Source: Dipteris shenzhenensis (lineage: Eukaryota). From it: 64,000 bases of DNA. The notes under the pieces were generated by a model. The model made no database searches. It was given only the letters and a program-made list of their open reading frames with translations, and was not told where the DNA came from. Below are positions 20,516 through 60,585 of the stretch, in pieces (position 1 is the stretch's first letter; the number at the start of each line of letters is the position of its first letter). The position numbers were made by a program, and so were the translations under genes. The stretch lies in the NCBI GenBank assembly GCA_047967505.1, contig CM106538.1; one strand, given 5' to 3'.

Positions 20516-21458
20516 CTCTAGATGTGCAGAAGGAAGTGGATTTGTTCGTGAGGCTCAAAAGTGAGTGAAACTTGTGCCAAAATGTGTGCATGATGTAACA
20601 AGCATGTACAGCACAAAAAATTGAGCGATTTTTCTTTTTGGAGCACCCTCAAATTCTTCCTAGATCAAGAGATACGGCTTGATCTAAGTGGAGGGGCAAA
20701 AAGGGTGCAAATGTGCTTAGTGATGATGTGGCAAGGTGAGTTCACATGAAGATACTGTGCCTAGCAGGGACCGTACTCAGGGATAACTGTGCTTAGGTGG
20801 TAGCTGAGTGGTCACATGTAGAAGCAGTTGTGCATGATGAGTTGGCAATTGGGTGCACATGCAAGGTGCTATGTGTGCTTAACAAGGGCTAGTGTGCCAC
20901 ATGTCACTACTGAGGTGGCAATGATGATGTGGACAAGATGAGGTGGCACGGTGCCATGTGTCAGTGGTGATGTGGTAGTACAGTTAGTTGAGTTGACATG
21001 ACTTGCTCATGTGTCATGGATGATGTGGCACCCAATCGAAGCCATGCCGAAAAATTCCTAAATAGTTCCTACTCGGAGTTAGTCCGAGCGCTCACATATG
21101 GTTTCACATCATCACATTACTTGAAACTTTACATGCCACAGTTCGTTGGGTACACTTCAGAGTGTTCAAAGATATTGATTGACAGATCATTGGGGGCAGA
21201 TAGCACATGATTTGATTTCACACACACATGCCATCTTGTAAAGCCTATTTGGCTATTTTTCGGCATTGTGCACTTTATTCAAGCCTTGTAAAGCCTCTTG
21301 GTTATTCCCGGCATCATTTGCCACAAGCCTTATAATATATTGATTATATATTGCAGTTCTATCTTCACCAAGAGCTCATATTTCACTTGACACAGTCAGT
21401 GTATTATAGTTGATTCAGACAGTGATTTCACATACACTTTGAGTACATTTCTTGCACC

Positions 21459-30093: not shown

Positions 30094-33000
30094 TGCAAGA
30101 GAGAAAAATAGATAGTATGGAGAATAAAAAATTTGATTACTATAAAACTAATACAATAGATGGTGCTACCTCCCAGCCGTGCACTCCTGTGAGAGAAGCT
30201 TTGATGGCATGCTGGAAACAGTAGAGGACGGAGGCTGGATGCTAAGGAATCAGGGTTGCTATAGCAAGTGATGATGATGGGCTTCATGGGCTTGCTCTTA
30301 TATAGCCACCAGTCATAGTCGGCTAGACCCAATTGGGTGACCGACCCAGTCCAGCCAAAACGACCTCGGTCGGCCACCGACCACATGATAGAACTGTGGC
30401 ACAAAATAGAGCAACTAACCTACGGTCTCCACCATCTAGGATCATCGGGGGCTCTAAATGAGCCCCACAACCTGAGAGTGCCTCGAGAAATGCTCCGTCT
30501 ACCCTTAGTGCAGTCAGTGATGGGATGCCTTCCCGCACTTGCATGTAGCCTAGTTGGCAGTGTGTGAACTCTATCTGAAGCTGTCCAGCCATCAGGCCAC
30601 ACATGGCTCCCATCTAGTGTCCAAAAACCAAGACCTACCAGATAACTGAGCTACTCAAATGCCTTCTCCTCATATGGGGGCTTACAAGTAGAGTTAGCTG
30701 GTTCCCGTGTAGTTACACGAGAGTGGAGCATTGATATCTAACACCCCCCCAATATGTCCACCCGCAAGTGAACTTACTTTTTCGGCCCAACGCCATGATG
30801 AGCTCGCGTACAAAGTGATATTGAATCTCAATGTGTTTTGTGCGAGCGTGGAACACAAGGTTCTTTGCAATCGCCATGCAACTCTGATTGTCACATGATA
30901 ACTGCGTAGGCATGTTCTGCACTACACCCATGTCCCCTAAAATCCTCCTCAACCACACTGCCTCACAAGAAGCAAAACATGTTGATTTGTACTCAGCCTC
31001 AGTAGAAGAAAGAGCAACTATAGGTTGCTTCTTGCTGACCCATGACACAGCTCCAGATCCAAGTGAGAAATAGTAACCTGTCACTGGTCTCCTACTGTCC
31101 ACGTCTCCTGCCCAATTCGAGTCACAGAATCTGGTCAAGATGTTGCCCTTGGTATAGATGATGCCATAATCAAGTGTGCCTTTGATGTATTTCAGCACCC
31201 GCATCCCTGCCCTCCAATGGTTCTCTCGGGGCTTATTAGAAAACCTGCTTAGCACACCAGTCACAAAACTGATGTCCGACCGTGTGTTGCACAAGTAAAT
31301 CAAATTGCCGACAAGCCTTCTATACTTTGCTTCGTCCACCAGTGGTGATGAATCCTCGTTTGAGAGCTTCACGTCAACCTCCATAGGGGTGCCAACTGTC
31401 TTGCACTTAGCCATGCCAAATGCCTTCAGTATCTCTCTAGCATACTTCGGCTATGAGATGAAGATCTGTTTTGGCTCTTGCCAAACTTCAATCCCCAAAC
31501 AGAAATGCATCAGTGTCATTTCAAACTCTCTTCCTAGCAAATGCTTTGTCTACGAGATCTTCTCTTCATGGTTCCATGTTATGACAAGGTTGTCCACATA
31601 AAGGACCATGATCATACACCTGCCTCCTTTGTAGTTATACAAATTTGCATCAGATGGGCTCCTCCTGAACCCATTTTGCAAAAAGTAGGCATCAATCCAC
31701 TGGTACCATGCTCGTTGGGCCTGTTTTAGCTCGTAAAGTGCTTTCTTTAGTTTATAGACTTTATCTTCTGAATCGGGGATCACAAAACCTGTAGGTTGTT
31801 CCACATATACCTCCTCCTTGAGATCTCCATTTAGAAAGCCGGATTTTACATCCATCTGAAACAGGGGCTAGCTTTCTCTTCTAGCATTTGAGTAGAAGAC
31901 AGTTTCTTTTCAAGTTCCTCCTGAAGAAGATGCACCACCATTTCTCTGCTCTTTAGAAATTAGAAGAGCAATCAACTCCTCAAAATAAGGAAAATTCTCA
32001 CAGATAGACGGAATTGTGCATAATCCTTTTGTAGACCATTCAAGGTCACAGAAACTAAATCATCATCTTCCACTGGTGACCCAATAGAAGCAAGTGCATC
32101 TGCAATCTTCTTCACCTTCATGTGGTAGTCATTGATGCTCATATTTTCTCTCTGCACATTATGCAACTCCTGCTTGAGCGCTGCATTTTCCTGGCTTGCA
32201 TATTTTTGCTATACATTTTTGTCGAAGTATCCCACACCTCCTTTGGTGTGCTTGCATCTTGAATATGCACAATCATAGAATCTAAAATACTGATAAACAG
32301 CCAGTACATAACTTTCCTAGCTCTCTCATGCCAGCCTTTAAATGCTTGCAACTCTTGTTGATTGGGAACATTAGGAATAACTGGTTCTTGTCCAGCTCTA
32401 GTAATGAACTCCCAATAGCCTTTTCCCTTAAGGAAATTCGTCATTCTAAACTTCCATGCTTGGACATTGTTCTTGTCAAGCTTTTCAGTGACTATCAGTG
32501 AAAGAGCATCAGATGCCATTACAGAACACTGCGAAATTATTTTGTCACTGCAAAAAACACAACTTCTACCTCACAAGGGCAAATCTGCAAAACTGACGAA
32601 AGTGGTATTTAACCATACAGTCACTTCCTAGTGACGATTTTGCATCAACAGGCAATAGGAATGATTTTGTCATTCCCAATATCTCTGTGCACAGGCATAC
32701 AATGCAATTTTTGTGGTAACTTTTCACCGACCTGCAGAACAGTGGTCACACAACAAAAACAGTGCACTTTTCTGAGTGCTTGCGAAAAACTTCCACCACC
32801 AAAATGGGCACCAAAATGGCCTCTCGCCACACTATGAAGGGCATCCCAATCTGAGAAGTGCACCTTTGCACTTTCTGGCTATGCTACTTGCCTCTGATTT
32901 GCTCCCAAACTCGAAAAAGGAAAGCAACACTGATCCTCTTACCAAGACACCGTGAACTTGGTTTGCTTTCTTGAGCTCCTTACCATGAATCGAGCTTTGA

Positions 33001-35666: not shown

Positions 35667-37471
35667 CACTCAATCACACCTACTAACACATGTTCACACA
35701 CTCACAACCTTAGACCTTAGGACTCTAGATCCCATTACATCAATTTGTCCTTCATTCCCCCCCACAAATTGATGACCTCAACCCTAGCAATAGTCCATGG
35801 GAAACTTCACAATCTGCCCACCTGTAGTGGTAACACACATGATCCACAACCTGGTACTCACTCTAGTTGCATCAGCAGTAGACTCATTTGGGCATCCTCA
35901 TCCATGATCTCACTCTGACTTTACTTTGTTGGTTTACAATTGGGAGATAGACAATGACTATGCATGGGAATACCCTTAGATCCAACAAGGTAATACATAA
36001 GACTAACAATCGTTTTAGGGGGACATCCTAAGGTAGAGAACCCTTATTGAGTCTTGACTACACATACAAAAACATTCTAAGTGGAAGATGTGGGGAAATA
36101 CCCCCCTTTGATGGCATGTCTTGTCCTTTTTCTCCTTCTCTTCCAAGCTACCATAGTGTGAGGTTCATTGTCATTGGAGAGGTTCTTGGTGTAGCCAATG
36201 TGTAGCTCCTTTGCTCTTTGTCCTTGTCCACACTCTTTAATGTATCTTGTCATATTTTGCAATACAAGTCCTTCACCTTCTTTGAGTGTCCAAGCCATAA
36301 AAATATTTTGTGAATCATATGGGCTGAAGAGGCTCTTACCACTTGTCATGCAAGGGCAGTGTCTACTCTTGTACAAGAGGTGGTCATGATTGTATGGCAA
36401 GGTATAGTCAACCAAATGCAAGTACATTTCATACATCATGAAAGATACTGAAACCATAACTAAGACATCTTCAAAATAAGAATCATAATGGTTGTAGTTG
36501 AAACCTTTGTTCCAATCATATCCATTGGAAATCATCATGCAAGTCATGATATATCCTTCCTTCATGTAGGCTCTTGTCATAGTCAACCCACACTAGTCAA
36601 CTAGTCAACAAGATAGTATGACTTGAAATCCACTTCAAAGTACCATAACCTCAATATAAAATATGAAAAATGCATTCAACTGAACTTCAAAAAGCATTCT
36701 CACAACTAAAAAAGCAATCTCTGAATCGCTGATCTATACTTTAACTCCTCAAGCATCACCTTAGCATTTAGTGTAGCATCAAACTTCAAAAATAGTCTAG
36801 AAATGCCAGAAAGCATAGGAACCTTGGAGGATTGCTACCTCACTCCAAAAAGCATCAAGAAGAGGGAATTTGCTGTGCAATCAAAGGTACTTGGAAGTAG
36901 AAGACTCAGTGCAAGTCTCAAACCAAATGAAGCTTCACACCACCAGGGGAAGTAGTATCTTCTCCACCTCCAAAAACCATGTCTCTTCTTCAAAACCCAA
37001 CTGGTTTTGCCTTAGTTTCTCCTCATTCCCTTGACCATTTTCCCTAAGAATTCACCAACAGGTAGCCCATAGAGTCACCTAAGTGCACCTCAGACCATTT
37101 TTGAAATGCTAGCTCCAATAAGCTAAATTGATAGAAATGGCATAGGATGAAGCAAGTATCAGCATGGGCTATAGAAGGACAATTTCCAAAAACCCTTTGG
37201 AGTAGAAGTGCGCCTTTATGAGGGGAATCTATGGCTGAAATGGTTTGGAGAATGGTTGCCTACATTGGGAGAACAAGCACTTGAAAATTTTTCTCAAAAG
37301 AGGGAAAAATGGAGAAGAAGAGAGTGTGAGGAAGAAGATGATGACATGGCACCCGAAAACCTATATTCACTCAATCACACCTATTGACACCTATCTAGGC
37401 ACACCATGTGTTCACACACCCACAACCTTTGACCTTAGGACTCTAGATCCCATTACATCAATTTGTCCTTC
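35667..37471. repeat. ~90-100-bp direct repeats ~1.7 kb apart (possible LTR ends)
   Basis: cactcaatcacacct...gaccttaggactctagatcccattacatcaatttgtccttca at ~35667-35754 and ~37368-37471. Confidence 0.75.
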
Positions 37472-38375
37472 AAAATGTTGAATTAGTAATCATACCCAGG
37501 TTCTACCAAAATTTCCCCGGAAATCCTATCATCTTTTTGCATCCTATTTCCAACTTTCAAAACTACAAATCTTTATTTCCTCTAGCTTAAATGAATCCCT
37601 CATTAATCTTTTTAGAATCTATCACATTTTTGACAATATGGAATCCTTCACTTCCTATGATGGTACTGTGAGTCTCGCCACTCCCTCTACCGGCCTCATC
37701 ACCACTTCACTACTCCTACTAGCCTCACCACCCCTTCTACTACTCCCTCTACTATTGTGTCTCCCTCTACTTCCATAGCCCCATCACCATATATCCCTCC
37801 CTCTATCTCTTTCTCCATGCCAAGCCATATCATTGATGAAGAGTTGAATCCCAAACCTAAGCCTCAACAAAATACCCAAAGGAGTCTAGTCAACAATCCA
37901 CAACATGCCCAACAAAGAGAATAAATATGACCATAATGGTAGCCCCTCTCTATCCCATAGGAAGCCCTTAGTTTTATATTGAGATAGACCTTGCCATGGA
38001 ACTTCGTGAAACTCTAGTCACCCTAAGCTAATAGGAATGGCTCTATCTTCAAGGAATATCCCCTCAGATATAAAAACTTCCACATTCCTATTTCTTGTGT
38101 GGATAAGCCACACAAAACCAAAGTGGACTATCAAAGGTAGGGCAAAAAACCAAGACATGGAGAAAACTGCAGAAATAGGGATAGATAACAATTCAGACTA
38201 GAAGGTAGAGGCTCAAAAGAAACCTATTGTATAGTAAGAAAAGGAGAGAGTGACTTTTCCTTTGGCAACCAACAATACTTTTGAGGCTCTTATTGACAAA
38301 GAAACTAAGAAGTGGATTCAAGATGCACAAATGGAGGAAGCTGAAATCAAACCTAGATGGTTTAGAGAGTTTGAG

Positions 38376-38409
38376 CATTAGGGGAAAATTGGGGTCTCAA
38401 AAGGGCCTT
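38376..38409 (+). repeat. Left terminal inverted repeat
   Basis: cattagggga-aaattg-gggtctcaaaagggcctt; 10-bp and 18-bp blocks identical to the right TIR, 6-bp spacer. Confidence 0.92.
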
Positions 38410-38960
38410 AAAAGGAATGGATTAACCTCCTAGGTGGGAACCAAAAAATTCAAAATTCAAAATTTGAATTTTGAATTCCCTCCCTCATTCTCTCTCCTCC
38501 CTCCCTCGCTCCCTCCCCCTCATCCCTCCCCCTCCCTCACTCCCCCTCCTCACTCCCTCCTCCCCCTCCCTCCTCCTCCCCCTCCCTCTCTCCCTCCTCC
38601 CCCTCCCGTCTCCTCCTCTCCCCCTCCTCACTCCCTCCTCCCCCTTCCTCCTCCTCCCCCTCCCTCCCTCCCTCCTCCATGCCTGCTCCTTCTGCCCTCC
38701 CCTTCCCTCCCTCCCTCCATGCCTACTCCTCCTGCCCTTCCCCTCCCTTGCTCCTCCTCCCCCCTCCCTCCTACTCCTCCCTCCTCCTCCATGCCTACTC
38801 CTCCTCACCCTCCACACCTACTGGTCTGCCCCCATTTCCTCCTCTTCAACTACTGGTTCTCCCTCACCCTTCCCTCCTCCTCCTCGCCCTCCCTCTTCCT
38901 TCGTGCTGCTCCTTCAAGCCTACATCTCCACACCTTCTCCTTCTCTGCACTCCTTTAGTC

Positions 38961-41903
38961 ATGGCACCATTCAAGGACATCTCCAACAAGTACCAGGTCC
39001 ACTTAGAGTTGGAGGCTGAATATGCAAGCACACGTAGTCTAGGATCGAGGGGAGCTTCCAAAATCCGCAGTCTTTATTCGCAAGGAAAGAAGCATCTCAA
39101 CCTTTGGGTAGAAGGATCCTTGTATCCTTTAGATCCTGCCAACCAAAAGAGCCCTCCTTTCCATACAATGCATGAGCTAGTTCCGTTTTTTGGAAATGGA
39201 CATGCGAGGTTGCTTGGTTATTGCAATCGGTTAAACAATGCTTAGTCAATGGCTATGCAAGCAAGCGAGATGCACAGAGCCCAAGTAGAGATGTTAGCAC
39301 ATTTAGGAAATAGCACCATTGTTGTAATGCATAACTCTATGTAGGATCTTCAAAGGGAGAACCAGGATCTTCATGATAAAGCCAAAGCATTGGACTTGGA
39401 GCAACGTAAATTAGAAGAGTCACTCTATAAGCTAGCTAAGTCCAAAAAAGGCTTGAAAAGATCTATATACAATCAAGTACGATGAGCCATAGAGAAGGAA
39501 CGAGAGAAGGCAGAAGAACGAGTGCAAAAGATGAAAGAAACACCTTTGGGATTGAAGGAGAGGAAAAGAAGGTACTTACATAACATGGATGCATTGGCAC
39601 CCACTGGTGGTGCTAGAAAGAGGAGAGTCTAGGCTACAAGGTTGGTTATGAAATGTTCCAATGAGATTACACTCTTTTGTGCTACACTGTTTGTGACTAA
39701 GTTTTTATTGTGTTCTTCTTTAGGAACTTCATGGAAGATGTGATGGGAAGAATGGATGGGGATGATATTGACTATTCATATGCTCTAGCTAGTTTATTGA
39801 AGTCAATCGATGTCATTGAGATACTAAGGGACCCAAGACACAAGCGCCTATGTGTGCAAGTTGTTGAGGAGGTGATGAAGGACTTCAAGGATATTGTAGA
39901 TGCAAAGGAGATGCTTGTAGCTTGTGATACTGCCGGTGTAAGTCATGAAGCTTACACATCTATTTTTAAAATTTTCAAGTCTGCTATTTTGGGAAAGTAT
40001 AAGAAGTCTATAGTGCCCCTACCCACACCTTGGTCTGTGAGACGTGCATGGCGAGAAACAAACCAATGTGCAAGAGAAAAGCGTGGAGGGTAACATTGCG
40101 TAAGGGGCACAATGACTTGGAAGAGTAAAAAGAAATCTAGCTTGCAAACCTTTGAGATGAATGCTTTCAACAATGTCTACTTAGATGTTGAGAAACTACA
40201 ACAAGCAATGGTCTTCTATGGCATGAGAGAAGATGGTAAGAGGAAATCCATTATAGCATTGCACTTTACTTAGTTCATTTCCTATATCATGTTTATCCTA
40301 ATGGATTTTCTCTTTTGTTGTACAAATTGCAATGGAAAGCTCATATTTGTCATCAAAATGTATGAAGCTCAATTGGTGAAAGAACACAAGTTAGAGAGAG
40401 TCAGCATCTGCATTATGAATGAAGCCTTAGCCTTTGTTCAAGGGGACAAAGAAGTAGAGCAAGATTTATCAGTGCAATTAGATAAAGATATATGGTGGCT
40501 TGTAGCGTTTGAGACTTCAAAAGAGTGCCATGAGACATTGAAGTGGGTTCTAGATAGAAAATGAATCCCATCGACGATTCAAAGATAAGAGGAAGGGCAA
40601 ACATTGACAGTCGATGGCCATGGAACTTTTCAAGTTGAATGGCATCTTGCTGGTGATTTGAAAACCCTCAAGTGCTTGCATGGTTACGATACAGGGGCAA
40701 ATGCAATGAACACATGCCTTTATTGCATGTGTTCGCAATGTAAGCAAAAGGTTGGCTTACAATGGGAGAATGTCATTCTATCTTGTAGCCAAACGCAAGC
40801 TCCGAATCGTGACAAGAAGGATCCAAAGTGGGATCCCATCTTGCCCATCCCACTTGAGAGAGTACACATATGTACTTTACATGTAGAACTGTGCGTACTT
40901 GATAAGTTGTTGTATTTGCATCTTGTCTATGCTTGGAATTTAATTCTACAAGAAGTATCCACATGGTGCATTGCAGAAGCTGAGAAGTTGTTGTCAGAGA
41001 TGGGATTGCATAGAGGACATGTCAAACTTAAGGAGGATAAGAAATGTCTGGGGCAACATAGAATCTTCCTACAAAAGTGTCCATGGGTGGAGGGAAGGCA
41101 AGGAGATTCCTATCAAACCACAATCTCAACAAACATAAACATACATTGTCTCAAAGTAGTTTGGGTTGGGAATACTGGAAAGCATTGTGTGAATGCATGA
41201 CCAATAAGGCTTCTCATCCTCAAGTAGCAACTTTGAGAGCTAAAGTACAGACAAAGGTAGATGCATTGATAAAATTGCTTTGCTAGGTTCAAATCGATGA
41301 GATGTATTATGAAAGGTTCAGGCTGGCTGTGAAAGAGTTTATGTAATTAATGGTGAAAGCATGGGGGGAGTCACACATTACACATTACATGGTAATCTTG
41401 GCACCATTCTAATATTTAGCACTTGCTTTATAAACAATTTTTGTTGCTGATATGATTCTCATCATGTTTGTAGCATTCTCTATGCACATGGACCATGGTT
41501 TGTACAAAATTGGGGTCCCTTGTCAATTTGGAATACACAAGGCATGGAGAAGTTGCACTATAGAGCCAAGGCAGCCTACTTCAAGAACTCGAGGCATGGT
41601 GGTGGTGTCACTCGTAGCAATGCATTGCATGAGATGTTCGACTAGTTTTTTCGATGTTTACTAAGAAGGACTTTGGAGTCTGAAAAGGCAAAGGCATCAG
41701 AACTTGCAAAAGCAGTTCAAACTATATCAAAGAATAGAAGGCATAGTGTCTGGAAAGCATCCATAGGGAGTCGAGGAGTCACACTTGCAAAAGCAGTTCA
41801 AACTGTATCAAAGAATAGAAGACATAGTGCTTGGAAAGCATCCATAGGGAGTAGAGGAGTCACATGTTGGTTGCAAGCTAGAGTGAGAGAAGGGATCAGA
41901 TGA
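38961..41903 (+). pseudogene. RAG1/Transib-like DDE transposase with 3 introns, disrupted by stops and at least 2 frameshifts
   Basis: ATG 38961; introns 39641-39723, 40236-40325 (acceptor reads AA, not AG) and 41392-41473. Motifs in order: VIKM(Y)EAQ, ECHETL, LTVDGHGTFQV, AGDLK, CLYC, ICTLH, MGGGKARRFL, ITHYM|(H)ILYAH, GPLSIWNTQGMEK. Confidence 0.85.
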
Positions 41904-42262
41904 GTCCAACCACCAACAAAAGCTATGGTGTAATTGTATACAAATATGAAATAAATATATTGCTTATTTTGACCACAATTTGTGTACTTACTCTTTAATA
42001 TCTTGCTTATTTTGACCACAATTTTTGTACTTACATGACATTGGGGAAAGTGGGGACATGGTGAATAGGGGCGAGAGAAGGGAGAGGCATGGGGCGGGGC
42101 AAGGGGAGGGGTGGAGTGGTAGCAAGGGTGGGGGGAGGGGGGGATGGGGGGTATGGGGGAGGGCGATGGGGGCGGGGCAAGTAGGGGGAGGGCAGGGGGG
42201 GGAAGGGCAACGAGGGTGGGGGGGTTGGAGGGGTTAGTAGGGCGGGGGCAGGGGACATGATG

Positions 42263-42333
42263 AAACCCTAAATGTAATTAAAAGGGATGTCAAAACATGA
42301 TGGGCCCTTATAAAAAGCTTTTAAAAACCCTAA
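42263..42333 (+). promoter_or_regulatory. Putative promoter of the H3-like gene: telo-boxes, site II motif, TATA box
   Basis: AAACCCTAA at 42263-42271 and 42325-42333; TGGGCC 42301-42306; TATAAAAA 42309-42316; ATG 42347. Confidence 0.55.
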
Positions 42334-42346
42334 CTCTCATTATTCA

Positions 42347-43372
42347 ATGGCAAGAGTGAAGAACACTGCTAGACCCACTGGACATCGCCTCCACCCTTCC
42401 TCCTCTAGCTCCACCACCTCCATGGCATCTATGCACACAAACCTATTCGGGTTCGATGGCACCTCCCTCGACTCTCATGAGCTCTCCCCCAACTCCCCCA
42501 AGTCTCGTGAGCCCACTCCCTAGTCTCCTGAGCCTTCTCCTCCTCCCAAGTCCCGTGAGCCCACTCCCCAGACCCAAGAGCATGAGCCTTCCCCTCAGCC
42601 TTCTCCCCAGCCTTCCCCTCAGCCTTCCCCTCAACCTCAGCCTTAGCATGACCCTCAGCCTTCCCCTTGGCCTCAGCCTCAGCCTAACCCTTAGCCTTCC
42701 CCTCAACCTTCCCCTGAGCCTTTCTCTAGGCCTTCCCCTCCCCATGAGATCCCTCTCTCGATCGAACAAAATGTATTCGATAACCTCTCGGATATAGAGA
42801 GGCTTCCTAAGGGTCAACAGGCTGCCATGAAGAGCACCATCTTCCCTCTCCCAGAGATACAACCCATGGCAGAGATGACCCTTGTGCCCATGAGGAGGGT
42901 AAAGCAGACTCCGAGGAAGCCCCATCCCAAAGAAGGCCAAAGCTCCAGACATTAGCGAGAGGAGGACTCAAACGAGGACCAACGTAGACAAGAGCAGCGA
43001 AAGAAGTTCAAGGCAGACAAGAGGCCGTGGGAAGGTGTTCAGGTACTTGTAAGGCCCCCACCAAGAGTCAAGAAGCCATACTAAGTAAAACTAGGAGTGC
43101 GGGTGATCAGGCAAATGCAGAAGACCATCGACAACTTGATCCCGCGTGCTCCCTTCCAACGTGTGGTATGGGAGATCAGACAGGGATACAAGGACAACAT
43201 GCACTTCAGCATAGGAGCTATGGGGGTGCTCCAGGAGGCTACAGAGCAAGTGACCATCGCTCTCTTTGAGGACGCCAACTTGTGTGCCATCCATGCAAAG
43301 CGTGTCACGGTCATGGACAAGGACATGGCTCTGGCGAAGCGGCTATGGAGTGACCCAAGTTTGAATCCCTAG
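42347..43372 (+). pseudogene. Histone H3-like protein with a long Pro/Ser/Gln-rich N-terminal tail (341 codons plus stop, 5 in-frame stops)
   Basis: One reading frame from MARVKNTARPTG (42347) through PSPQ repeats, MRRVKQTPRK (42890) and VKKPY to the H3 fold [21 protein letters not shown]...LQEATE...[28 protein letters not shown]. Stops at 42521, 42644, 42692, 42953 and 43082 are all TAG or TAA. Confidence 0.9.
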
Positions 43373-43565
43373 ATTCTCTTGCAACCCACTCTTAGGACTT
43401 AGACCACCCCCTGCCCTTGAAGGCACTATCTTATATCTAAAACCCAAGGGCCTATTTTTTAAAATAAAATATATCAACATTCTCTACACTATCGCATTGT
43501 TGTATATTTTCCATTTCAATGCTTGCAATAAATGATCATTTTAAGTTAAGTTTTGAATTCTGTTC

Positions 43566-43736
43566 AATCCTGAAGGAATTTCACCATCGCGCAAAAGGGA
43601 AAAGTGTCTGGCACATCGCCAGGACCCCAGAAAGCCCAAAACTTGCCATGGTGTGAATTTGGGCATTCTGGACTTTGCCCTGGCGAGGTTTCGGACACTT
43701 TTACCTTCTGTGCGATGGTGAAATTTCTTCAGGATT
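43566..43736. repeat. 171-bp imperfect palindrome (hairpin)
   Basis: Left arm aatcctgaaggaatttcaccatcgcgcaaaagggaaaagtgtc...; reverse complement of right arm aatcctgaagaaatttcaccatcgcacagaaggtaaaagtgtc...; inner ccagaa(a/t)gcccaaa pair; centre ccatgg. Confidence 0.9.
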
Positions 43737-43965
43737 TCACAAAAATGAACTCTTGATACCCAGAATTGGTGAAAATGATACTAAATTGGCTAGAAATCTA
43801 TTAAATTAACACAATTAAAATGATGGAGAAAATATATCATCGACTTAAACAAAATACAATGGAATTCATGACGAGCAATGAGAACTTAAAACAAATAATA
43901 AAGACATGTAGTCATGTATCCATTGAAATATCCATTTAGATATATGTTTATATATACAAAAGGCC

Positions 43966-45434
43966 TCACAGGCTATCTTTCTTCTTGGCTAGTTCGAGTA
44001 CATTGAGAATAGGGGTCTTTGAATCCCCTAGTGGATTCCTAGATATAAATCTAGCCACAACAGCACTAACATCCTCCTCTCCTACTACCAAAGATAGCCG
44101 TTGCCGTCAATGCCCTGCCATGAATGTTCGATCTAAAGGCATTGATAGCAACCAGGTGGTGTACCAAAATGACTTTGTCGACATTCCGAGTAATGTTGAA
44201 GTATCCAATAGCACGCGATAATGCCTTGCACTTCAGCAGCTTCAAAGGACCTCGAGGAGAAAATTTGCTATGAAAGACCACGATATGCTCTACGACTTTG
44301 CCAAGGTAATGGGCCAAAGAATGATCTCGCCCAAATGTGCTGTGAACATTACCCTATCGAGATGAGAATTCATCAAGCTCGAACACATCCTGCAACAATT
44401 CAACAAACATTAGAAGACCGACAAAACAAATTATACTGAAACAACATCAAAATAAAAAATATTGTTCGAACTTACCACTACAGCGTCATCGGCTTCTATC
44501 CCTTCGTCATTTGCAATGTTGAAGGAACCAGGTGCTATGTGATGTTCCATTTGGGAGGTGGACGCTTTCTCCTGACTTGTGTTGGAGGTGGAAGCTTCTG
44601 CATGAGAGGGTTGTGCATCGTATACGGACATGTCTACATCCCTCATTGAAACCAGCATTGTCAAGAGAAAGTCTTTCATTGTCTAGTCTTTGATACCTAA
44701 AACCCTAGGATCTTTGACACTTGTGTCAACATCAAACCTCGATAGGACTCTGAGTGCCTCATCCTCTCGTAGTCCAAAAAGAATCTCTATGTCATGGAGG
44801 AATACGTACTTTTCTCCATCGATGACGAGGGGAAACAAGGACCATAATTTTGAGTTTGGGTCAACGGTCTCTGATGCAGATTCTTGCTCTACTGGGGGCT
44901 CTTGAAGCAGGCTCAATGCTTGAGCTACTTCCATCTCCTCTATTGGATCATCAAGAATCTCTTCCATGTAGATTTCCGAGTCTAGGGACGACCATATCAG
45001 TAGTTCTGATAGAGGGGGTGCTAGACGATGAGGTTTCTTCCTCTAAATTTCATCTCCCATGAAAGGAATTTGGTGCCTGTATTTCTTATGATCCTTGCGT
45101 CTAGGATGTCTTGAACTTCGACTGTCCTAAACCCTTCGTATGTAAGGTTGTCACAAAAGCGGGCCAAGCGCTTTACAAACTTGGGTTCCTCTACGAACAG
45201 ATACTTTATGTAATCTATGGGAACCCATCTCTTTAAAGTGTGGTCAAGTGTATAGGCAAAATTTGCGAAATTATCTTACATGTAAAGGATGAGATCTGAA
45301 AAGTCATCCTTGGCCTGCATATATGTGCTTAGGACATCTAAACTCCTATCAAACACTAAAAATAGCTCTTCCTCATGATTTGCAAATGCAGTTTGTGAGA
45401 TGAAGTCATGGAATGTAGTTCTAGCTGAATCCAT
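43966..45434 (-). pseudogene. Unknown protein gene inside the transposon (one intron, stops and frameshifts)
   Basis: ATG 45434 (MDSARTTFHDFISQ...); TATA-like run at ~45540. ORFs 44683-44967, 44431-44679 and 44066-44317 are linked in frame by a stop and a GT-AG intron at 44475-44390. Confidence 0.6.
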
Positions 45435-45680
45435 GGCAAATAGCAGTTGATGGAGGGAGTAACTTTTGAGGATGGGAGTTTCTATGGCTCTCTAAATGTG
45501 AAAGTGAGAATGTGATGTAAAAAGGGCTCTTACCCCTTAATATATATAAAAACCCTAAAAATTAAAATTAATCATAAAATCCCCAAATTTTTTGAAAAAC
45601 ATTTACCATGAACTGAAAGGAGAAAACATTAAAAGAAATAACATTTTAATTTAATTGTCCATCATCTTTTGAATCAATAA

Positions 45681-46993
45681 CTAGGATTTGATAGACAAAA
45701 AATTAAATGCTGCACTAGTAAACACATTGTTAGCAATCTTCAAAGTTGCAGGAGGAATGAAATTGGCACTATGCATGCACTTCTCCACATGGTGGCTGAT
45801 CTTACCACCATTTAAGGTAAAGTAGAAGAACTCTGACATGCTGTCCTCCATGACCAATAGGGGTTCTCGCACATCCCCTAGAGTCCATTGCAATGTGACA
45901 TTCACATTCTTGACATCTCCTTTTTCAGCATGAATAGACAAACTTACCCCCATATTGTCTTCATCATTAGAGTCTAGGGGAAGCCACCGGCCATTTGTTT
46001 TCTTCCAGTTCCTATACTGAAAAGCTATATACAACATTTCGCATGTATCTAATAACCACATTGTCTTTACATGCATGACATTGAAACACATCACCCTTTT
46101 GGTCACCTGACCTGGTTTCCCAATTCATCCCAAGTAAATCTTCAAGAGCATTTTCATCTACATGCTTGCAGGACCACATAGTTTTTGTTCTATGCATATG
46201 TATATTCTGAAATAAAGAAGCAAAAATGTGCAGAGGCATAAACCAAGATAACCTTGCCCATTTGGATCCAAATGTAAACTTCATGGCCATGCCCACATCC
46301 TTTGCAATCTTGTCCTTGTATGATTGCAATGTCCTCGAGTCCACATTGCTGCAATCCATGTCTTGAAGTTGTGGTAGTGCAATGGTTTACAGACATCCAT
46401 AGCTTGATGATGTCGTTGGAGTGATGTATGTTGCATTATATCAATACACATTCTTCATTCACAAGGAGGCCAACTTCTCCCCGGCATGCATTTGCTCACC
46501 TAAATCCTCATGAATCGCAGTGAACTTGCCTATGAATGATTCAACTAGTTCCCACTCCTCGAGGTCCAAAGGGAAAAAATTTGCCACCATGAATAAGAGC
46601 TCTTAGAAACCAAACACAAAATTTCCAAATGGACGCATTACACTTATAGGTGAAAAAGATACATAGATAGAAAGGCTCACAGTGTGATGGTATCCTAGAT
46701 TGATTGAATGATGGAGGAAGCTGCATATCTTTTCCCATGTAAACATGTTGCACTTTTGCGAGCCATCCTTTCTTCCCAAACTTGAACTTCAAGATGCACC
46801 CCTTCCACTCATGCAAGATGTCACCTCTCTTGCACTTGGGAATCTTATGTGGACCTTTGGCCGATCCTTTCATCACTATCCAGTCATTTAAGTTGTAGGT
46901 GCAAGGGATCTAATCATCCAATGCATTTTTGGTGTTGTGGAAGACACAAGAGGTCACAGCATTGCATGGTCTTGTAGCCTTTCTCCTCACCAT
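45681..46993 (-). pseudogene. Probable BAH-domain protein inside the transposon
   Basis: ATG 46993; YNLNDWIVMK...EWKGCILKF...AKVQHVYMGKDM, intron from 46680 (acceptor not clean), then FPLDLEEWELVESFIGKFTAI...NVY*YNATY. This follows the BAH motif order and runs in frame into ORF 46012-46359. 3' end uncertain. Confidence 0.65.
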
Positions 46994-47679
46994 GCTTGCA
47001 GCAGTTGCAACAACAAGAACGGGACTCCTACACAAGGCAGTGCAGCTCCAATAGAGGCACAAAAGAGGGAGAAGGAGAGGGACAAAGTAGTAGCAATAGA
47101 GGGAGAAGTAGAGGGATAGAGCAGCAACAACAGAGGCATAAGAGAGGGAGAAGGAGAGGGACAGGGCAACAACAACAGAGGCACAGGAGAGGGAGAAGGA
47201 GAGGGGTAGTAGAGCAGCTCCAACAGAGGTACAAGAGAGGGAGAGGGGAGAGAGAGAGAGAGAGGAGCTGGAGCAAGCAGGCTAGAGTAGGAGGGAGCAG
47301 AGAAAGAGGGGGAAGAGGGAAAATGCGTAGGATTTGGTTTAAATTTGAGTGATTTGGTAGGCTGGACCAGAACAGTGGGCGGCAGAGGCCCTAGAAAGAG
47401 GGAGGGGAGAAGAAAAATTTGCCACAAGGGCCATACCATCCCCTTGAAGGTAGTTTTGGGCTCATGTGGGGGAGGTGCACCTGGTAGGAGTGTCAAAAAT
47501 GGGTTGAGGGGGGGGGGATGGTTTGGGTGGTCCCTAGTGTAAGGGGAGCAACCAATAGGGGCTCTCTGCAGGCATGCCCACCCTCCACCTCAGCATACCA
47601 TTGCACCACACCTTCTAGCACTCTCATTGATACACCTCAAATCACTCTCTAATCCCTTAAAATTAGGAAACACTAATTG

Positions 47680-47710
47680 AAGGCCCTTTTGAGACCCTTC
47701 TCCCCTAATG
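47680..47710 (-). repeat. Right terminal inverted repeat
   Basis: Reverse complement cattagggga-gaa-gggtctcaaaagggcctt; same two blocks as the left TIR, 3-bp spacer. Confidence 0.92.
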
Positions 47711-50700
47711 GAGGATGTAAATCAAGTAGATGCCAGTATGAGTGAATTAGAGTTAGGAGACTCAGAGGAAGAACTTCCTTTGGCCCAAAAACTGAGTAAT
47801 CCTATAGGACCTCCTGCCAAACCTCAAGCCACAACTCTGAATAAGAGAAGGATTTCCAAGTAAAGGGTTAGAGTGCCCCACCCAAAAGCCCAACACCCAA
47901 GGCTAAAAAGGGGAAGAGTAAAATAAACCATTCACTTTTCTCACAATGTTTGTGGATTAACTGACTCTTGGAGGAGTCAGGAATTAGCCAAGTGGCTGAG
48001 AGATAGTTCTCTGTCTCCTACATTTCTTATCTTACAAGAGGTGAAAGTAACAAATGTCACCCTGGATAATAGGTTAAAAAAGGTTGACATCATAAGAATT
48101 TGGCATTTCACAAGTCATGATGAAGGAAGGGGTGGCACTGCAATTGGGATATTGTCTCATGACAAGGACTGTGTCATCAGGTGCAGGCAGGACCCAAACC
48201 ACAAATGGCTTGCTTTAGAATGCAGAATGAAAATTTTTTATTTCACAGTTGTCTCAGTTTATGGTCCAATAGGCTCTATGGAAAGAAGAATCACTTGGGA
48301 TTTAATGCTGAATCTAGGAAGTGACTGTATTATTATTGGGACTTCAACATGGTTGAGAATATCAAAGACAGATGGATGCAGAAGGGATCAGTACTTAGGG
48401 GTTCTAAACAACAAATATAGGAAGATCTCAAAGAAAATTTGCAAGTGGTATACATCGGGACTCCCAGCATCTACACTTGGAGCAATAGACAGGTAAGTAA
48501 TTTGAGGAGAGAAGCCAGGCTAGATAGGGTGTATATTTCTCAATCTCTAATTGACCAAGCTCTAGAAGTCAAACAATCCACCTTTTCATCCCTCACCTTA
48601 TCAGACCACAAGCCAGTGTTAGCTTGTATTGATTTGGGGTGTGGGAAGAAAGGAGACTCTTGCTTTAAGGCCGATCCTTCCCTGTTTAAGCTTCAGACAG
48701 TTCAAAGACAACAAATTATAGAGAGTTGGCACTTGTCTTTTGTAGTAGCTGACTCCTTGTGTCAGGGTTGGAAGGATGCTATTGAAAGGGTCCAAACAAT
48801 CTTAAAGGAAGCCAAAAAAAATAGAGTAGCCATTAGAGCAAGAAGAATGGACAAGCTTAAGAAGAATATTGAAGGTCTTGAACAAAGAGCTAGAAGTAAT
48901 GATGTCAATACCCAACATCAATTATTGGTCAAAAGAAAAGAGGTCAGAGTACAAGAACAAATCAAGCTACATAATGCCAAGGTCTACTTTAGGGAATGGT
49001 GGGTAGGCAAGATAGACAATCCAACTAAGGAGAATTTCAAAAGGATTAGAAAAAAGAGGAATCATGACAAAATCCCTTGGTTGCAAAAGGAGGATGGGGA
49101 ATTGGTCAAATCAGAAATAGAAAATATGGAGATCATAGTCACTCACTTCAAAAACCTTTTAAGCACAGTGGAGTTAATAGACAACAAGGTCTTGGAGGCC
49201 AAAAATAGGTGCCATGTAGCCAAAAAATCCTATGTATCTAACCTAGACAAAAATCAGTTGGAAATTGACCTATCCCTTCAAGAACTTAAAGAGGAGGTGT
49301 TTGCAATGACTGATGGCAAAACACCTAGGGAAGATGGGCTACCTGTTGAATTCTACAAATTCTTTTGGGACATTGTTGGCCCCTCCTTACTGGCTGTTTG
49401 GAGGGAGAGTGTTAAACAGGGCCTACTCCCAAAGCATTTAAATGGAGGGGTAATTAAACTTATACCAAAGGAAGGGGACAGGACAGTCTTAAAATATTGG
49501 AGGCCCCTCACTATACTAAACTGTTCCTATAAGATATATGCTAAAGAAATTGCTTTGAGACTAAGACACAAGATGGACAAGTGGATTTTGGAGGAACATA
49601 AAGGATTCATCAAGAACATGCATCTATTAGAGGCAATCATCAAATTATGGGAAGGGTGCACTCATGTTGAAGAAAGAAATTAAGAGATCTGTCTTATTAA
49701 AATGGACTTTGATAAGGCATATGATAGGCTGAATTGGGGCCTTCTGCTACAGTCACTTAACAGCTTGGGATTGGGGAAGAAATTTACCTCCTATGTAGCT
49801 CTGCTAATATCAAATGCCTCTACAAAGGTGTGTGTGAATGGTGATATGTCTCAAAGCTTCATGTTGAGAAGGTCCATTATTTGCTATAGCTGTTGATGCC
49901 TTGGGATGGTTGATAAAAGAACTGGTGATTGCAGTAGAAATCAATGGTATAGAACTCCCCTCTAGAAAGCAACTGGTATACCAGCAAATTGCCAATGATA
50001 CTACCCTAACAATTAGAAACACAAATGTAGACATACAAAGAGCTATGGAATGTATGGATATATTCTGTAATGCATCTGGGTCAAAAATAAATCACTTCGA
50101 AATAGGTTATGCATTATTATTTGGTGACAACCTAAACCTTTTAGAATAGCTTGGATGCAAGAAGGTTCCCCATGGACAGATATTCAAGCTATTAGTTATC
50201 CCTATCAAATTCAATGTTAGGATGAAAGATAGATGGGAGTTCCTAGAAAAGTTCAAAAAGAAAATAGATAGTATCAGGGGATTGCATACATCAAAGCCCT
50301 AACTAATGGAATTTAGCATTTCATGTGATAGACTATCTTCTATACGATGGCAAGGGATAACCTTGAAGTATTGTTAGCCTTAAACAAGGCCAAGGCTTAC
50401 CTACCTCTTCTCTTCCCTTTGATCTCCATTGCCTTGACATCCTTCTCTTTCCTTACTTTGCCCTTTCATCCTCGTTTACCTATTTCATTGTAGTCTCTTT
50501 GCCTAATTTTCTTTATCCATCCATGGAATACCATTATGGGGTCTGCTACCTTTGTGAACATTCTCTTTAGCATCATCATGCCACCCACGCTCGCTGTCTT
50601 CCTCAAATTTGGGTGTGTGCCCATTTCATTCAGGTAGGCCTCATGAATGATATATATAATTCACCTTGTTTGGAATATTACAATTTTTACCATTAAGAAA

Positions 50701-53584: not shown

Positions 53585-54403
53585 TCTTGTGTCAATTGTG
53601 TGACTCTGGGTGCCTATCACTACTAAGAGCACACAATCCACACTAGCTGGATTTCGCTGGTAGCCCCGCCTAGCGTAGGCAATCATCTACATCCTCGTCT
53701 AGCCATGACGTGTGATTAGGTGGTTGCCATGCTAGAATTTCTTGGTCAACGGAGCCAAGATCTTGTGTCAGTTGTGCGACTTTGGGTGCCTATCACTGCT
53801 AAGAGCACACAATCCACCAGCTGGATTTTGTTGGTAGCCCAACTTAGCATAGATAGTCATGTACACATCTAGCCATCACGTGCGATTAGATGGTTGCCAT
53901 GCTAGAATTTCTTGGTCATCGGAGCCAAGATCATGATAATTCAATAGGATGAGGGGGAAGGAGTGGTGGCACATACACCTAGCTTTGCTGGTAGCCCAGC
54001 CTAGTGTAGGCAGTCATATACATCATCGACTCGCCATAACGTGCAATTAGATGGTTGCCGTGGGAGAATTTCTTGGTCATCAGAGCCAAGATCATATAAA
54101 TTCAATGGGATGAGGGGGGAGGAGTGGTGGCACATACACTTAGCTTTGCTGGTAGCCCAACCTAGCGTAGGCGGTCATATACATCATCGGCTAGCCATGA
54201 CGTGCGATTAGATGGTCGCCATGGGAGAATTTCTCGGTCATTGGAGCCAAGATCATTATAATTCAATGGGATGATGGGGGAGGAGCGGTGGCACATACAC
54301 CCAACGTTGCTGATAGCCTAGCCTAGCATAGGTGGTCATATACATCATCATCTAGCCATGATGTGCGATTAGATGGTTGCCATGGGAGAATTTCTTGGTC
54401 ATC
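53585..54403. repeat. Tandem satellite-like array, ~160-175-bp unit x5
   Basis: gccatgacgtgcgattagatggttgccatg..agaatttcttggtca recurs at ~53700, 53870, 54033, 54192 and 54353. Confidence 0.9.
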
Positions 54404-54560
54404 GAAAAATGCTAATCTAGGTGGCCTGTGAACTAGATGGCCCCTCATGCAAAGTCATTGTTATTACAGTCAATTGAAGAAAGGAAAGATTAAAATACGA
54501 CATCAGATTAGCATTGAGTCGGTTCATCAGGCTATAATAACAACAATAGTTCTCATTGTA

Positions 54561-58146: not shown

Positions 58147-59694
58147 TTAGAACCAAGAGGAGAGCGCATTTGTATCGTCCTCCAAATCCATAATCGCAAC
58201 GTAATCCTCTTCCTTGAAGAGATCTGCAACATCCGCTAGCTCCACCACACTCTCTTGCGGCAGCCCTCCAAGATCAAAGAAGCTTAAGCTTCCGAATTCG
58301 ATGTCGAAATCGTCTGGCATCAATTCGGAATTGAGTTCCATGGTTTCTTGTTGCGTCTCCATTAATGGAGCGATTGCATCGTCACAAAGTTGTGCAATCC
58401 CAGGTTGAAACACATTGCCGGAGATAGAGAGAGAATCTGACCGCTGGTCTAATAGCCAATCCAAGGAAGAAGGTGGGTCTCTTTCCATGGAATCTGAGCC
58501 TTCGCAGGGTGCAGAAGAGGCTTCTAGGAAAAGGCACCTTCGCTCTGGGCATGAGGACACTTCTTTAGAGGTTGCACAATCCAGAAACTCAAGGGAGCTT
58601 GTAAGATCGAGACTGCTGGAAAGAGAGCAAGCTCCAGGTGATCCAGGGGATCCGGAGGTCAAGTGATTGATCAAAACAGAAGAAGGTGAAGAGACAGACA
58701 GAATTTCTTTGGGCTCGAAATACTGCGGCACTTCGAAGAAGCTCATGGGCGCACCACTTGATTCGCAGCAATCTACTAAGCTTAGCTTCGATGTGGAATC
58801 TTTATAGCCATGATCTGATTCACAGCAATCGATGGACTTTAGCTTCGACGAGGAAGCTTTGATTGCTTCACTCGAATGACCAACATCTTCAACTTCACAG
58901 TAGCTTTCAAGTGACGGCGCAGTCTTTCTGTTTAAAACCTTTTGAAACTTCCCCCGACTGCGATCTTGAAACAGGGCAGAAAAATTAGTAAGAGCTTGAG
59001 GGCCTCTAATTCTCTTGGCTGCTTTGTCATAGGCACGCGCAGCTTCTTCTGCTGTATCATAGGTACCCAGCCACAATCGGACACCCTTTGAGGGATCTCT
59101 GATTTCGGCAGCCCATTTTCCCCACGGCCTCTGCCTCACACCCCGAAATTTCTGAGCTCTCTGTCGTTCTTGAGAGCTCCTCACACTTGTAGGAGGAGGC
59201 GGCAAAGACTTCCTAGCTACCTTGCCCGGTACTGGGCTGCCTCTCACAGTCCTAGCTTCTTTCTTTGTGTACAATTTGTTACTTTTCTTCCACAGAGGTG
59301 CACTTTTAGTCAGCCCAACAGAGTTCCTCTGGAAGTCACTGACGTGTTGGTCCGAATGTTCAGCTTCCTCTTTCAGATTACTCTCAGCTGCAGCGTCAAT
59401 ATCGTCTCCGATGCTGGGAGAATAAAAATCGGGATCAATGTAAATGTCCTGAATTTGTCTTTTGATATGAACGTTGCAGGACCCGACTTCTTCATCGCTG
59501 GAGGATTCCGTAGCATCTGGATCAGTGCATATCACTCGTACCCTCTTCGGCCGAACCCTGGATCTTGAAGGACTTAACTCATCCTCGGAATCCGAGAAGA
59601 AATATTTCTCAGCTATGCGTTGAGTCCTCTTGAGCGCGCCTGATGTTTTCGCATAAGGTCGTGCTGATTTGGGACACTTTTGAGGCCCTGGCAT
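58147..59694 (-). CDS. CRF: AP2/ERF transcription factor of the cytokinin response factor (CRF) type, intronless, 515 aa
   Basis: First ATG 59694 (MPGPQK); CRF domain [21 protein letters not shown]2 domain [20 protein letters not shown]...[17 protein letters not shown]...ALTNF; SPSSVL motif. Confidence 0.93.
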
Positions 59695-60585
59695 CTTTGG
59701 AGAAGTGGAAAAAACCACCAAGGTTCCACAATATTTCGAAAACGCCGAGGGCAATGGTGAGGCTTTCTTTTCAAGACGGTTTGCACGCTGCAAGGCGTAA
59801 ACTAGCTAGCCTGAAGTAGTGCACTAGTGGTATCTCCTTGCAGGTCATAGGAAGCAATACCCAGGAGTGACAGTGAGAACGCAAGAACGGAAGGGAAGGA
59901 CGTATACGTACTGCAGCTACGGAGGGGAATGACAATTTGCAGATCCGAGGTTTGCCAAAAAGGGTACCAGAAGGCAGCTACGCAGGGAATGACAACTTGC
60001 AGATCAGAGAATGGAAAAAGGGTACCAGAAGGCAGACATTTGCAACATGAGGGCAATAGAGGGTGAAAGCTCATGCGAGCGGGGGAAGCAAGCAAAAACT
60101 GCTGTCGCGGAGGCCTTAATTTCCTCGTGCGACTACACTGATCAGAAATCAGAGACAACTGCAAGGGCGGGTGCCGCCGGGGAGGGAAGGGAAGTTCCAA
60201 TATATGAAATGCAAGAAGGGGTGGGGGGCGTTGCGGGACGATTGGGGAGCTCGTCACGAGCGGGCAGCTGCACGTTGAGGCGAAGGAAAGGGCGCGTGTG
60301 TGTATGGGACGAGGCGGGGCAAAGAGAGACGAGGAAGGTACAAAAACAGATCAGTGGTGTCCGTTTAATCAAGAGCAAGAGAGGGTGCGTGCGTGCAGGG
60401 AGGCAACGAAAGCAAGCATGATGATGGGAAGGTGAGATAGGCGGAGAGGAGGCAGCGGCGGCAGCAACTGCAAGGAAAAGAAACGTGGAGATGGAGGGGA
60501 GATGATGGGAGAGGAAGAAGAAGATGGAAAGACGAAGAGGAGGAGGAGGAGAAGGGAGGGTATGGCGATGGCTAGCTATGGCGAT

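Follow-up and report, generated by a model that had tools for sequence, protein, structure and literature searches.

How does a gene for a histone H3-like protein come to lie inside a transposon, and what could it have done for the element that carries it? The question is raised by a reading frame at positions 42347-43372 (plus strand) of a 64,000-nucleotide stretch of Dipteris shenzhenensis DNA (contig CM106538.1); this whole stretch was analyzed and is called the window below. The frame consists of 341 codons followed by a final TAG, and it encodes two motifs resembling the start of the H3 tail, a long tail and a histone fold. Because five in-frame stops interrupt it, the window copy does not have the open reading frame of an H3 gene and is a pseudogene. 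At a probability of about 0.7, we regard it as the dead remnant of an accessory gene that belonged to a cut-and-paste DNA transposon and would have worked in the way proposed below. The value of the window copy is that of a pointer to a family of H3-carrying transposons.

The frame is enclosed by the genes and the ends of an element, as follows.

38373-38375: GAG, left copy of a putative 3-bp target site duplication (TSD), abutting the left inverted repeat; the sequences further out are unlike each other.
38376-38412, plus strand: left terminal inverted repeat (TIR), beginning with CATTAGGGG (5'-CA end); it equals the right end at 32 of 34 aligned positions, with a 3-nt indel in addition.
38988-41885, plus strand: decayed DDE transposase gene of about 900 codons with several stops and one conserved intron position near ..THYM/..ILYAH..
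44135-45464, minus strand: open reading frame X (ORF-X), the second conserved element gene, decayed; it may extend to about 46124.
47677-47710, minus strand: right TIR, ending with ..CCCCTAATG (3'-TG end) and pairing with the left TIR.
47711-47713: GAG, right copy of the putative TSD, abutting the right inverted repeat.

The element thus delimited spans 38376-47710 (9,335 bp); its TIRs are about 34 nt long, its ends read 5'-CA..TG-3', and GAG is duplicated as a 3-bp TSD. Only one insertion supports this TSD, and a chance match of GAG would occur in 1 of 64 cases. The gene order is DDE transposase (plus strand), H3-like gene (plus strand) and ORF-X (minus strand). Contigs from four public sequencing runs (three studies for organism B and one for organism A) covered the element at 80-99% identity, and the outer bins, 37876-38220 and 47881-48210, had a depth of 0 in all four. 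In runs X3 and X4, 28 of the 30 bins had a depth above 0, and both outer bins were empty. The contigs of run X5 diverged from the window directly before 38376. A loose end was located at 38375. One contig of the public runs lacked 43098-43368. Since the H3-like gene lies between two conserved element genes, within the TIR and TSD bounds, and since the cover by other copies ends at these bounds, we conclude that it is located inside a multi-copy cut-and-paste element, and the description of the gene as transposon-borne in the earlier note was correct. The search of public sequencing runs listed no RNA run as a holder; the DNA holders were found at small shares (0.04-0.08 of words). A Pfam search on the six-frame read-through of 37000-47000 gave a histone match only. 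A Pack-type, that is, non-autonomous, CACTA element was considered and rejected: the element retains a full-length transposase remnant and ORF-X, and its H3-like gene is complete and preceded by a promoter-like region.

Within and just ahead of the H3-like frame, the following features were recognized.

42263-42346, plus strand: promoter-like stretch, with AAACCCTAA boxes at 42263 and 42325 and TATAAAA about 35 nt before the ATG.
42347-42376, plus strand: first H3-tail-like motif, MARVKNTARP, at the first ATG of the frame.
42585-42740, plus strand: 12-nt tandem repeat of 13 units, encoding (P-S-P-Q)n and containing two of the stops as CAG>TAG.
42890-42919, plus strand: second H3-tail-like motif, MRRVKQTPRK, from codon 182, a possible alternative start.
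43085-43369, plus strand: histone fold, from the remnant of helix N to helix 3, with a short C-terminal extension (residues 247-341).

The two motifs were the sole matches to the tail pattern in six frames of the whole window. A canonical tail (ARTKQTARKS..ARKS..GGVKKP, as in protein P0020) is represented in the window by two degenerate copies of its first nine residues. Both keep K4; at position 9, the first has Pro and the second Lys. The ARKS stretch is absent from the frame, and RVKKPY stands directly before the fold, so that the RVKKP part of the canonical tail is kept. The start of the frame, the position of the second motif and this reading of the tail residues had all been reported in the earlier note, and they were recovered when we re-read the frame. 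The in-frame stops are TAG at codons 59, 100, 116 and 203 and TAA at codon 246. Codons 1-181 form a low-complexity region rich in Pro, Ser and Gln that also includes a 27-nt in-frame repeat at 42516-42567. This region is open in another frame as well (42360-42797, 145 amino acids), and the minus strand is open at 42443-42967, opposite the first half of the H3-like frame. Because a low-complexity stretch of this kind stays open in other frames, the finding of no frameshift weighs little in the first half. That both motifs belong to one continuous reading frame is plausible, not proven.

The ATG at the first motif is preceded within 85 nt by two AAACCCTAA boxes and the TATA box. Four AAACCCTAA boxes were found in the window, with 0.76 expected, and two of the four lie ahead of the H3-like gene. 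We take these boxes to be the plant telo-boxes of genes active in dividing cells. In the metagenome loci described below, no such boxes were found upstream of the H3-like genes.

The fold matched the Pfam family Histone (PF00125) with an E value of 2.8e-25 and a score of 89.3 bits (cut-off, 26.4). When it was compared with solved structures, 179 chains were found at E<=0.01, and the matches listed (60) were all named H3, H3 variants or a histone-domain protein. The best solved chain was H3.3 (E 1.4e-24), with residues 4-88 of the fold aligned to residues 47-131. The alignments to the solved H3.3, H3.2 and H3.1 chains had no gaps, and the identity was about 55%. The fold keeps the H3 residues of solved nucleosomes, with helices 1-3 in register with nucleosomal H3; helix N has a three-residue deletion relative to canonical H3 (P0020).

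A CENH3 identity had been offered in the earlier note as an alternative for this gene. The fold was therefore set against a CENH3 group of nine rows, seven of which are named CENH3, CSE4 or hH3v by their source. The plant proteins P0090 ("Histone H3-like 1") and P0087 (uncharacterized) were put in the group by us, and neither is named CENH3 by its source. Loop 1 of the window fold has no insertion relative to H3.3, and an insertion is present in the fungal CENH3 rows and in the H3-like proteins of two metagenome loci, L001 and L002. At the start of helix 2, the window has His-Phe, compared with Arg-Trp in all nine rows of the CENH3 group. The window also has LIPRAPF for LIRKLPF, like P0090 and P0087. 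In a tree of the folds, the window fold fell outside the CENH3 rows, on the H3 side, though its long branch makes this placement unsure. Based on the absence of the loop-1 insertion and of Arg-Trp, together with its position in the tree, we find no support for a CENH3 identity of the window copy.

The next question is whether relatives of the element carry such a gene. Metagenome contigs were scanned with an alignment of the transposase, which gave 24 loci, and all frames on both strands of these loci were searched for H3-like sequence. It was found only downstream of the transposase and on the transposase strand. L001 has an intact H3-like frame of 184 codons whose protein begins with MGRVKQ, and L002 has an H3-like frame with one in-frame stop. 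In L010, an open frame of 268 codons that runs off the contig joins a canonical-type N terminus, a second motif and a long tail. L015 has 77 N-terminal codons (MARTKQTARKD..) up to the contig end, and L021 has a fragment of the fold. Loci were considered informative when they included the transposase C terminus and at least 250 nt downstream (n = 13). The next gene after the transposase in these loci was H3-like in four (L001, L002, L010 and L015) and ORF-X in eight; nothing was found in one (L005, with 332 nt). No TIR pairs were found in four metagenome contigs, which probably lack one end.

Further H3-like proteins were found in sequence records. Six annotated "hypothetical proteins" of this type are encoded on six contigs of Adiantum nelumboides and are 76-100% identical. 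Identity to the Adiantum type is 65-68% for four unnamed ENA proteins, over 91-95% of the length and with the tail included. One Adiantum protein, P0154, is a single gene model fusing a transposase fragment (corresponding to residues 594-713 of the transposase relative P0110; E 4e-12) to the H3-like protein. Three of the ENA proteins (P0155, P0158 and P0159) are complete, and the N terminus of P0159 is that of the L015 frame. In L015 and these three proteins, ARTKQTARK is kept exactly and is followed by Asp in place of the canonical Ser; the rest of the tail is unlike H3. The two-motif arrangement was found in the window and L010 only and was absent from nine Adiantum/ENA proteins. The H3-like proteins of L001 and L002 have short tails, beginning with GRVKQ.. 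and VRIKE.., in which the motifs are degenerate. In these two loci, a further plus-strand frame follows the H3-like gene (L001:2587-2856, starting MVRVKKTPTR, and L002:3059-3238, starting MVRRKITPRR), and the contigs end inside it. These elements may therefore carry two genes with H3-like N termini.

The H3-like genes of L001 and L002 could be compared with each other. The ratio of nonsynonymous to synonymous substitutions (dN/dS) was 0.21, a rough value since dS (1.26) is near saturation. The amino acid identity was 65% for the H3-like proteins, the same as for the transposases. The low dN/dS and the equal divergence of the two genes therefore fit co-inheritance under purifying selection. The proposal that the window gene was once functional is supported by this pair and by the intact H3-like genes at the same position in relatives. 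Conservation of the long tail among element copies, whose absence the earlier note had named as a refutation, gave a mixed outcome: in the Adiantum/ENA lineage the long tails are conserved (identity 65-81%, across 91-97% of the protein), and the tail of the window shows no detectable homology to them.

How did the window copy die? According to the earlier note, all five stops could be C-to-T changes of Gln codons. For three of the five, CAG>TAG is proven by the repeats, as sister units of the in-frame 27-nt and 12-nt repeats keep CAG; the other two, TAG at 42953 and TAA at 43082, are only compatible with C>T. The transposase frame has stops at 40091, 40271, 40562, 40586 and 41198, and its codons at 39701-41200 include 0 CAG versus 22 CAA. 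The observed/expected ratio of CpG was 0.29 in the element and 0.36 in the rest of the window, and transitions exceeded transversions 3- to 4-fold among element copies. The absence of CAG and the low CpG level are in line with heavy C>T decay where CG and CHG sites were methylated. Both the H3-like gene and the transposase are inactivated in the window, the former mostly by C>T changes at CAG, as expected of a methylated, silenced copy. About 45% of the fold differs from canonical H3, and only five stops, each a point mutation, interrupt the frame; the fold had therefore probably acquired most of this divergence before this copy died.

The relationships among the folds were analyzed with a maximum likelihood tree (40 rows, 90 columns), in which three separate transposon-linked H3-like lineages appeared. 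L001 and L002 grouped with the plant CENH3-like rows of Elaeis and Wolffia (support, 92/80), within the CENH3-named part of the tree. The Adiantum proteins, the ENA proteins and L010 formed a clade on the H3 side (100/99). In an approximately unbiased (AU) test, neither a grouping of the window with the Adiantum clade (p 0.31) nor one of all linked rows together (p 0.14) was rejected; the groups were named after the tree had been seen, and such non-rejection shows nothing.

The transposase belongs to a large family. Residues 2-893 of P0110 matched 38988-41885 by tblastn (E 3e-98), and the window transposase had 15 relatives, the best with an E value of 1e-82. At E<=1e-3 the family comprises 956 cluster representatives, and at E<=1e-30 it comprises 132. 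The features checked for membership in the EnSpm/CACTA-Transib (CMCT) group were the D..C(2)C..H(4)H..E motifs, 5'-CA..TG-3' termini with TIRs, a TSD of 2-5 bp and likeness to named members. Family motifs include KLDE, GDLK and QGME, the E of QGME being the E of the catalytic motif. The D-x20-C(2)C motif (GDLK, then CxxC after 20 residues) was present in 22 of the 24 related loci and in the window (40652), and H(4)H-x18/19-E was present in 17 of the 24 loci; the first His of the latter was not seen in the window. Catalytic motifs, TIRs with 5'-CA..TG-3' ends (CATTAGGGG.. and ..CCCCTAATG) and a 3-bp TSD were all found. As to likeness, Pfam searches with nine family proteins gave no match to Transposase_21, Plavaka or RAG1 at E<=1, and chance coiled-coil matches only. 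A profile of the family compared with solved structures gave one chance-level match and no RAG1 or Transib chain. The Atlas feature similarity to Plavaka, Transposase_21 and RAG1 clusters (0.93-0.96) gives leads only. Three family representatives (P0311, P0348 and P0408) are chimeric gene models in which the added part is DUF7794, the zinc domain of an integrase or a reverse transcriptase of the Copia type; such chimeras fit repeat-rich genomes, where gene prediction fuses neighboring elements.

ORF-X was recognized through its relatives: those of L011 (E 4e-19), L018 (E 8e-10) and L007 (E 4e-9) matched 44135-45464 by tblastn. It had no Pfam domain match and no usable Atlas match. Next to the transposase, ORF-X lies on the minus strand in L004, L007, L009, L013, L016 and L018, convergent with the transposase as in the window, and on the plus strand, the same as the transposase, in L011 (1937-3094) and L017 (3791-4030). 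Gene order and orientation thus vary within the transposon family.

What the H3-like protein might have done can be set out in three steps of decreasing certainty. The gene very probably once worked in an active element and would have been expressed from its own promoter. Its protein would then, with odds somewhat better than even, have paired with host H4 and entered nucleosomes, because the fold keeps the H3 residues of solved nucleosomes and helices 1-3 are gap-free. The third step is tentative: the altered tail may have turned such nucleosomes, or the free protein, into poor substrates or decoys for the host silencing machinery acting through H3K9 and H3K27, to the benefit of the element. 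The window tail keeps K4; T3 is Val, S10 and the K27 stretch are lost, and K9 is lost or stands in a changed context, with Pro at or after position 9. In the Adiantum/L015 type, ARTKQTARK is unaltered and Asp takes the place of the canonical Ser. H3K9 methylation and CHG methylation form a loop that silences plant transposons. A histone that is not marked or read like host H3 at K9, S10 or K27 would weaken this loop. Judged from residues in a predicted protein, an anti-silencing role is conceivable rather than probable. The suggestion of the earlier note that the protein could not carry K27 methylation is likewise a reading of the sequence. In the L001/L002 type, it is more natural to think of a role related to the centromere. 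With similar caution, an old and widespread EnSpm/Transib-like family may encode its own working nucleosomal H3 variants, either to set its own chromatin state and so escape H3K9/K27 silencing or to choose its landing site.

Several observations weigh against regarding the frame as a working accessory gene of the transposon. The H3-like gene is missing next to the transposase in 8 of the 13 informative relatives, which have ORF-X instead, so it is not universal in the family. Independent samples are few because the H3-positive loci come from two record sets only. Intact H3-like genes were seen only in relatives of the element, none of them from the window's own genome. The window fold forms a long branch (0.76) beside a metagenome protein without transposon linkage, P0003 (94/90), outside the Adiantum/ENA/L010 clade, and a single origin of all transposon-linked H3-like genes is neither shown nor rejected. 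The tail of the window had no detectable homology to the Adiantum/ENA-type tails (profile score, 2.6 bits; 5 of 500 shuffles scored higher), and BLASTP aligned the fold and the first nine residues only. In a collection of 5.8 billion sequences, this tail was unmatched: all 98 matches covered 11-36% of the query or had no local alignment. A resemblance to the Adiantum type seen by eye ("..EIP..", "..RKKF..") was dropped, as the profile score lay within the 500 shuffles. Finally, the transposase would represent an unnamed, Pfam-less family of the CMCT group, as suggested by its motifs and termini.

Two rival explanations leave the gene without any use to the element. An ordinary decayed host H3 or CENH3 pseudogene lying merely near transposon debris would suit a repeat-rich window and a broken frame. 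However, the frame lies between two element genes inside the TIRs and is multi-copy together with the element, and its fold, about 55% identical to canonical H3, is accompanied by just five point-mutation stops. In addition, the organism B contigs with the canonical-type neighbor motif EAAEAYLV match the window over a short stretch only, at about 43265-43308; a simply decayed host H3, the outcome against which the earlier note had set its reading, is scarcely credible. Passive capture is a better, though still unlikely, explanation. It holds that a host H3-variant gene was carried as cargo without a role and that the H3-like genes of the other lineages were separate captures; plant CACTA elements and Mutator-like elements (MULEs) often capture genes. 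The three separate lineages in the fold tree, the unrelated tail of the window and the eight relatives without the gene all favor it. What argues against it is that the gene is whole, with its own promoter-like region, and that its place and its strand with respect to the transposase do not change between the window, L001, L002, L010 and L015. The equal divergence of the H3-like gene and the transposase between L001 and L002, with its dN/dS of 0.21, points the same way, and a single origin was not rejected. Moreover, if one kind of gene had been captured again and again into one slot, selection would be needed to explain it.

The remaining rivals concern the kind of protein that was made. The true start may have been Met182, giving a protein of about 160 amino acids with an ordinary tail, and codons 1-181 would then be a leader or repeat DNA in frame by chance. 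Three of the five stops lie within these codons, which are of low complexity, contain the 12-nt tandem repeat and are open in other frames, and the L001 and L002 proteins have short tails. On the other hand, the first ATG coincides with an H3-like N-terminal motif and lies about 35 nt past the TATA box, the L010 open frame joins both motifs to a long tail, and nine Adiantum/ENA proteins have long tails. We consider the shorter protein doubtful, although the strongest of the rivals. A soluble mimic of the tail, acting off chromatin and titrating H3-tail readers or writers through its ARTK-like motifs, would account for the exact ARTKQTARK in L015, P0155, P0158 and P0159, for the dissimilarity of the rest of their tails to H3 and for the two motifs of the window. 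It is improbable: a mimic would have no use for a histone fold, and here the whole fold is conserved; in addition, the motifs of L001 and L002 are degenerate. Lastly, the element may have carried a CENH3-like histone that targets centromeres. The long divergent tail and LIPRAPF, shared with P0090 and P0087, speak for this, as do the long loop 1, the Arg-Trp and the grouping (92/80) of the L001 and L002 proteins. The window copy itself, without the loop-1 insertion, with His-Phe for Arg-Trp and outside the CENH3 rows, makes it very unlikely for the gene studied here. An accessory H3-like gene of the transposon, expressed with its long tail and placed in chromatin, remains our preferred reading.

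The element also contains the following repeats.

38471-38915, plus strand: C/T-rich low-complexity tract upstream of the transposase start, mirrored at 47039-47274.
41702-41863, plus strand: 81-nt tandem duplication, two copies 93-94% alike, at the 3' end of the transposase gene.
42060-42260, plus strand: G-rich tract between the transposase and the H3-like gene, complementary to the C-rich tract at 38.5 kb.
43548-43754: inverted repeat with 76-nt arms, 80% complementary and 55 nt apart, 180 nt past the stop of the H3-like gene, perhaps a small insertion or a hairpin.
47039-47274, plus strand: G/A-rich 45-nt repeats that mirror the left C/T-rich tract in inverted orientation.

In the rest of the window, five other features were observed.

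18719-18974 and 32104-32361: two direct repeats, each about 260 nt long, that lie 13.4 kb apart and are 90-97% alike, a possible pair of long terminal repeats.
20370-20526 and 24208-24364: arms of a 157-nt inverted repeat (92% complementary) separated by 3.7 kb; another TIR element probably has its ends here.
47927-49683, plus strand: remnant like a long interspersed nuclear element, with weak endonuclease and reverse transcriptase matches, about 220 nt past the right end of the element.
53653-54415: tandem array of five units with a 161-nt period.
58147-59805, minus strand: host gene of plant type, an open frame of 552 codons that encodes an AP2 domain (E 8e-16); together with the telo-boxes, it indicates a plant genome.

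Literature searches found no description of a transposon-encoded histone H3; the Repbase report on Lanisha and supplements lay outside the search and may bear on novelty. The portions consulted of a centromere atlas preprint and of the Ceratodon papers (PMC8245031) contained nothing on transposon-encoded H3. If our reading is true, a transposon would for the first time be known to encode core histones. The lineages would provide a natural set of selected H3 tail variants, one with residues 1-9 kept and S10 changed to Asp and another CENH3-like. When ferns and other large plant genomes are annotated, gene models called "H3-like" or "CENH3-like" that occur in many copies may be transposon genes.

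Selfish elements that encode their own histone or a histone-like tail are known among viruses, as giant viruses and a bracovirus (H4) encode histones and viral mimics of the H3 tail exist; the carrier here, in contrast, is a chromosomal DNA transposon. The gene resembles CENH3/CENP-A as an H3-fold variant with a long, fast-evolving tail, and the L001 and L002 genes add a long loop 1 and Arg-Trp; the window copy differs in having neither the loop-1 insertion nor the Trp and in falling outside the CENH3 rows. Among transposons, the CMCT clade includes EnSpm/CACTA, Mirage, Chapaev, Transib, Plavaka and ESTA, as well as Lanisha, according to the sections consulted of PMC12730594. The window element shares with this clade its 5'-CA..TG-3' termini and 3-bp TSD and differs in that its family has no Transposase_21, Plavaka or RAG1 match at E<=1 and that its second gene, ORF-X, has no known domain. 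Lanisha is described, in the sections consulted of PMC8245031, as a proposed EnSpm-like superfamily of plants, from the moss Ceratodon. Like the family of the window, it is an EnSpm-like cut-and-paste lineage of plants outside Pfam, and the two could be the same, as compared by description only.

Some transposons are also known to encode proteins acting on the chromatin state of the element itself; the examples given here are DNA-binding or enzymatic proteins, and none of them is a histone. They include the VANC anti-silencing proteins of VANDAL (MuDR) elements and the products of SET-domain genes in oomycete HarbingerS/MuDR elements (PMC12730594, in part). In that paper, fungal DNA transposons (KDZ, EnSpm, Plavaka and others) are reported to carry TET/JBP dioxygenase genes. 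The parallel with the window family is that those elements are cut-and-paste transposons, some of them CMCT, in which a chromatin gene stands beside the transposase, occurs in some lineages but is missing from their close relatives, and is proposed to allow an escape from silencing. The difference is that their cargo is an enzyme in fungi, whereas here it is a core histone in a plant, known from its sequence. If our reading is true, the strategy would be unlike that of TET/JBP, SET or VANC: the element would supply the substrate of the silencing marks itself, in a form that is maybe unmarkable or recruits other factors.

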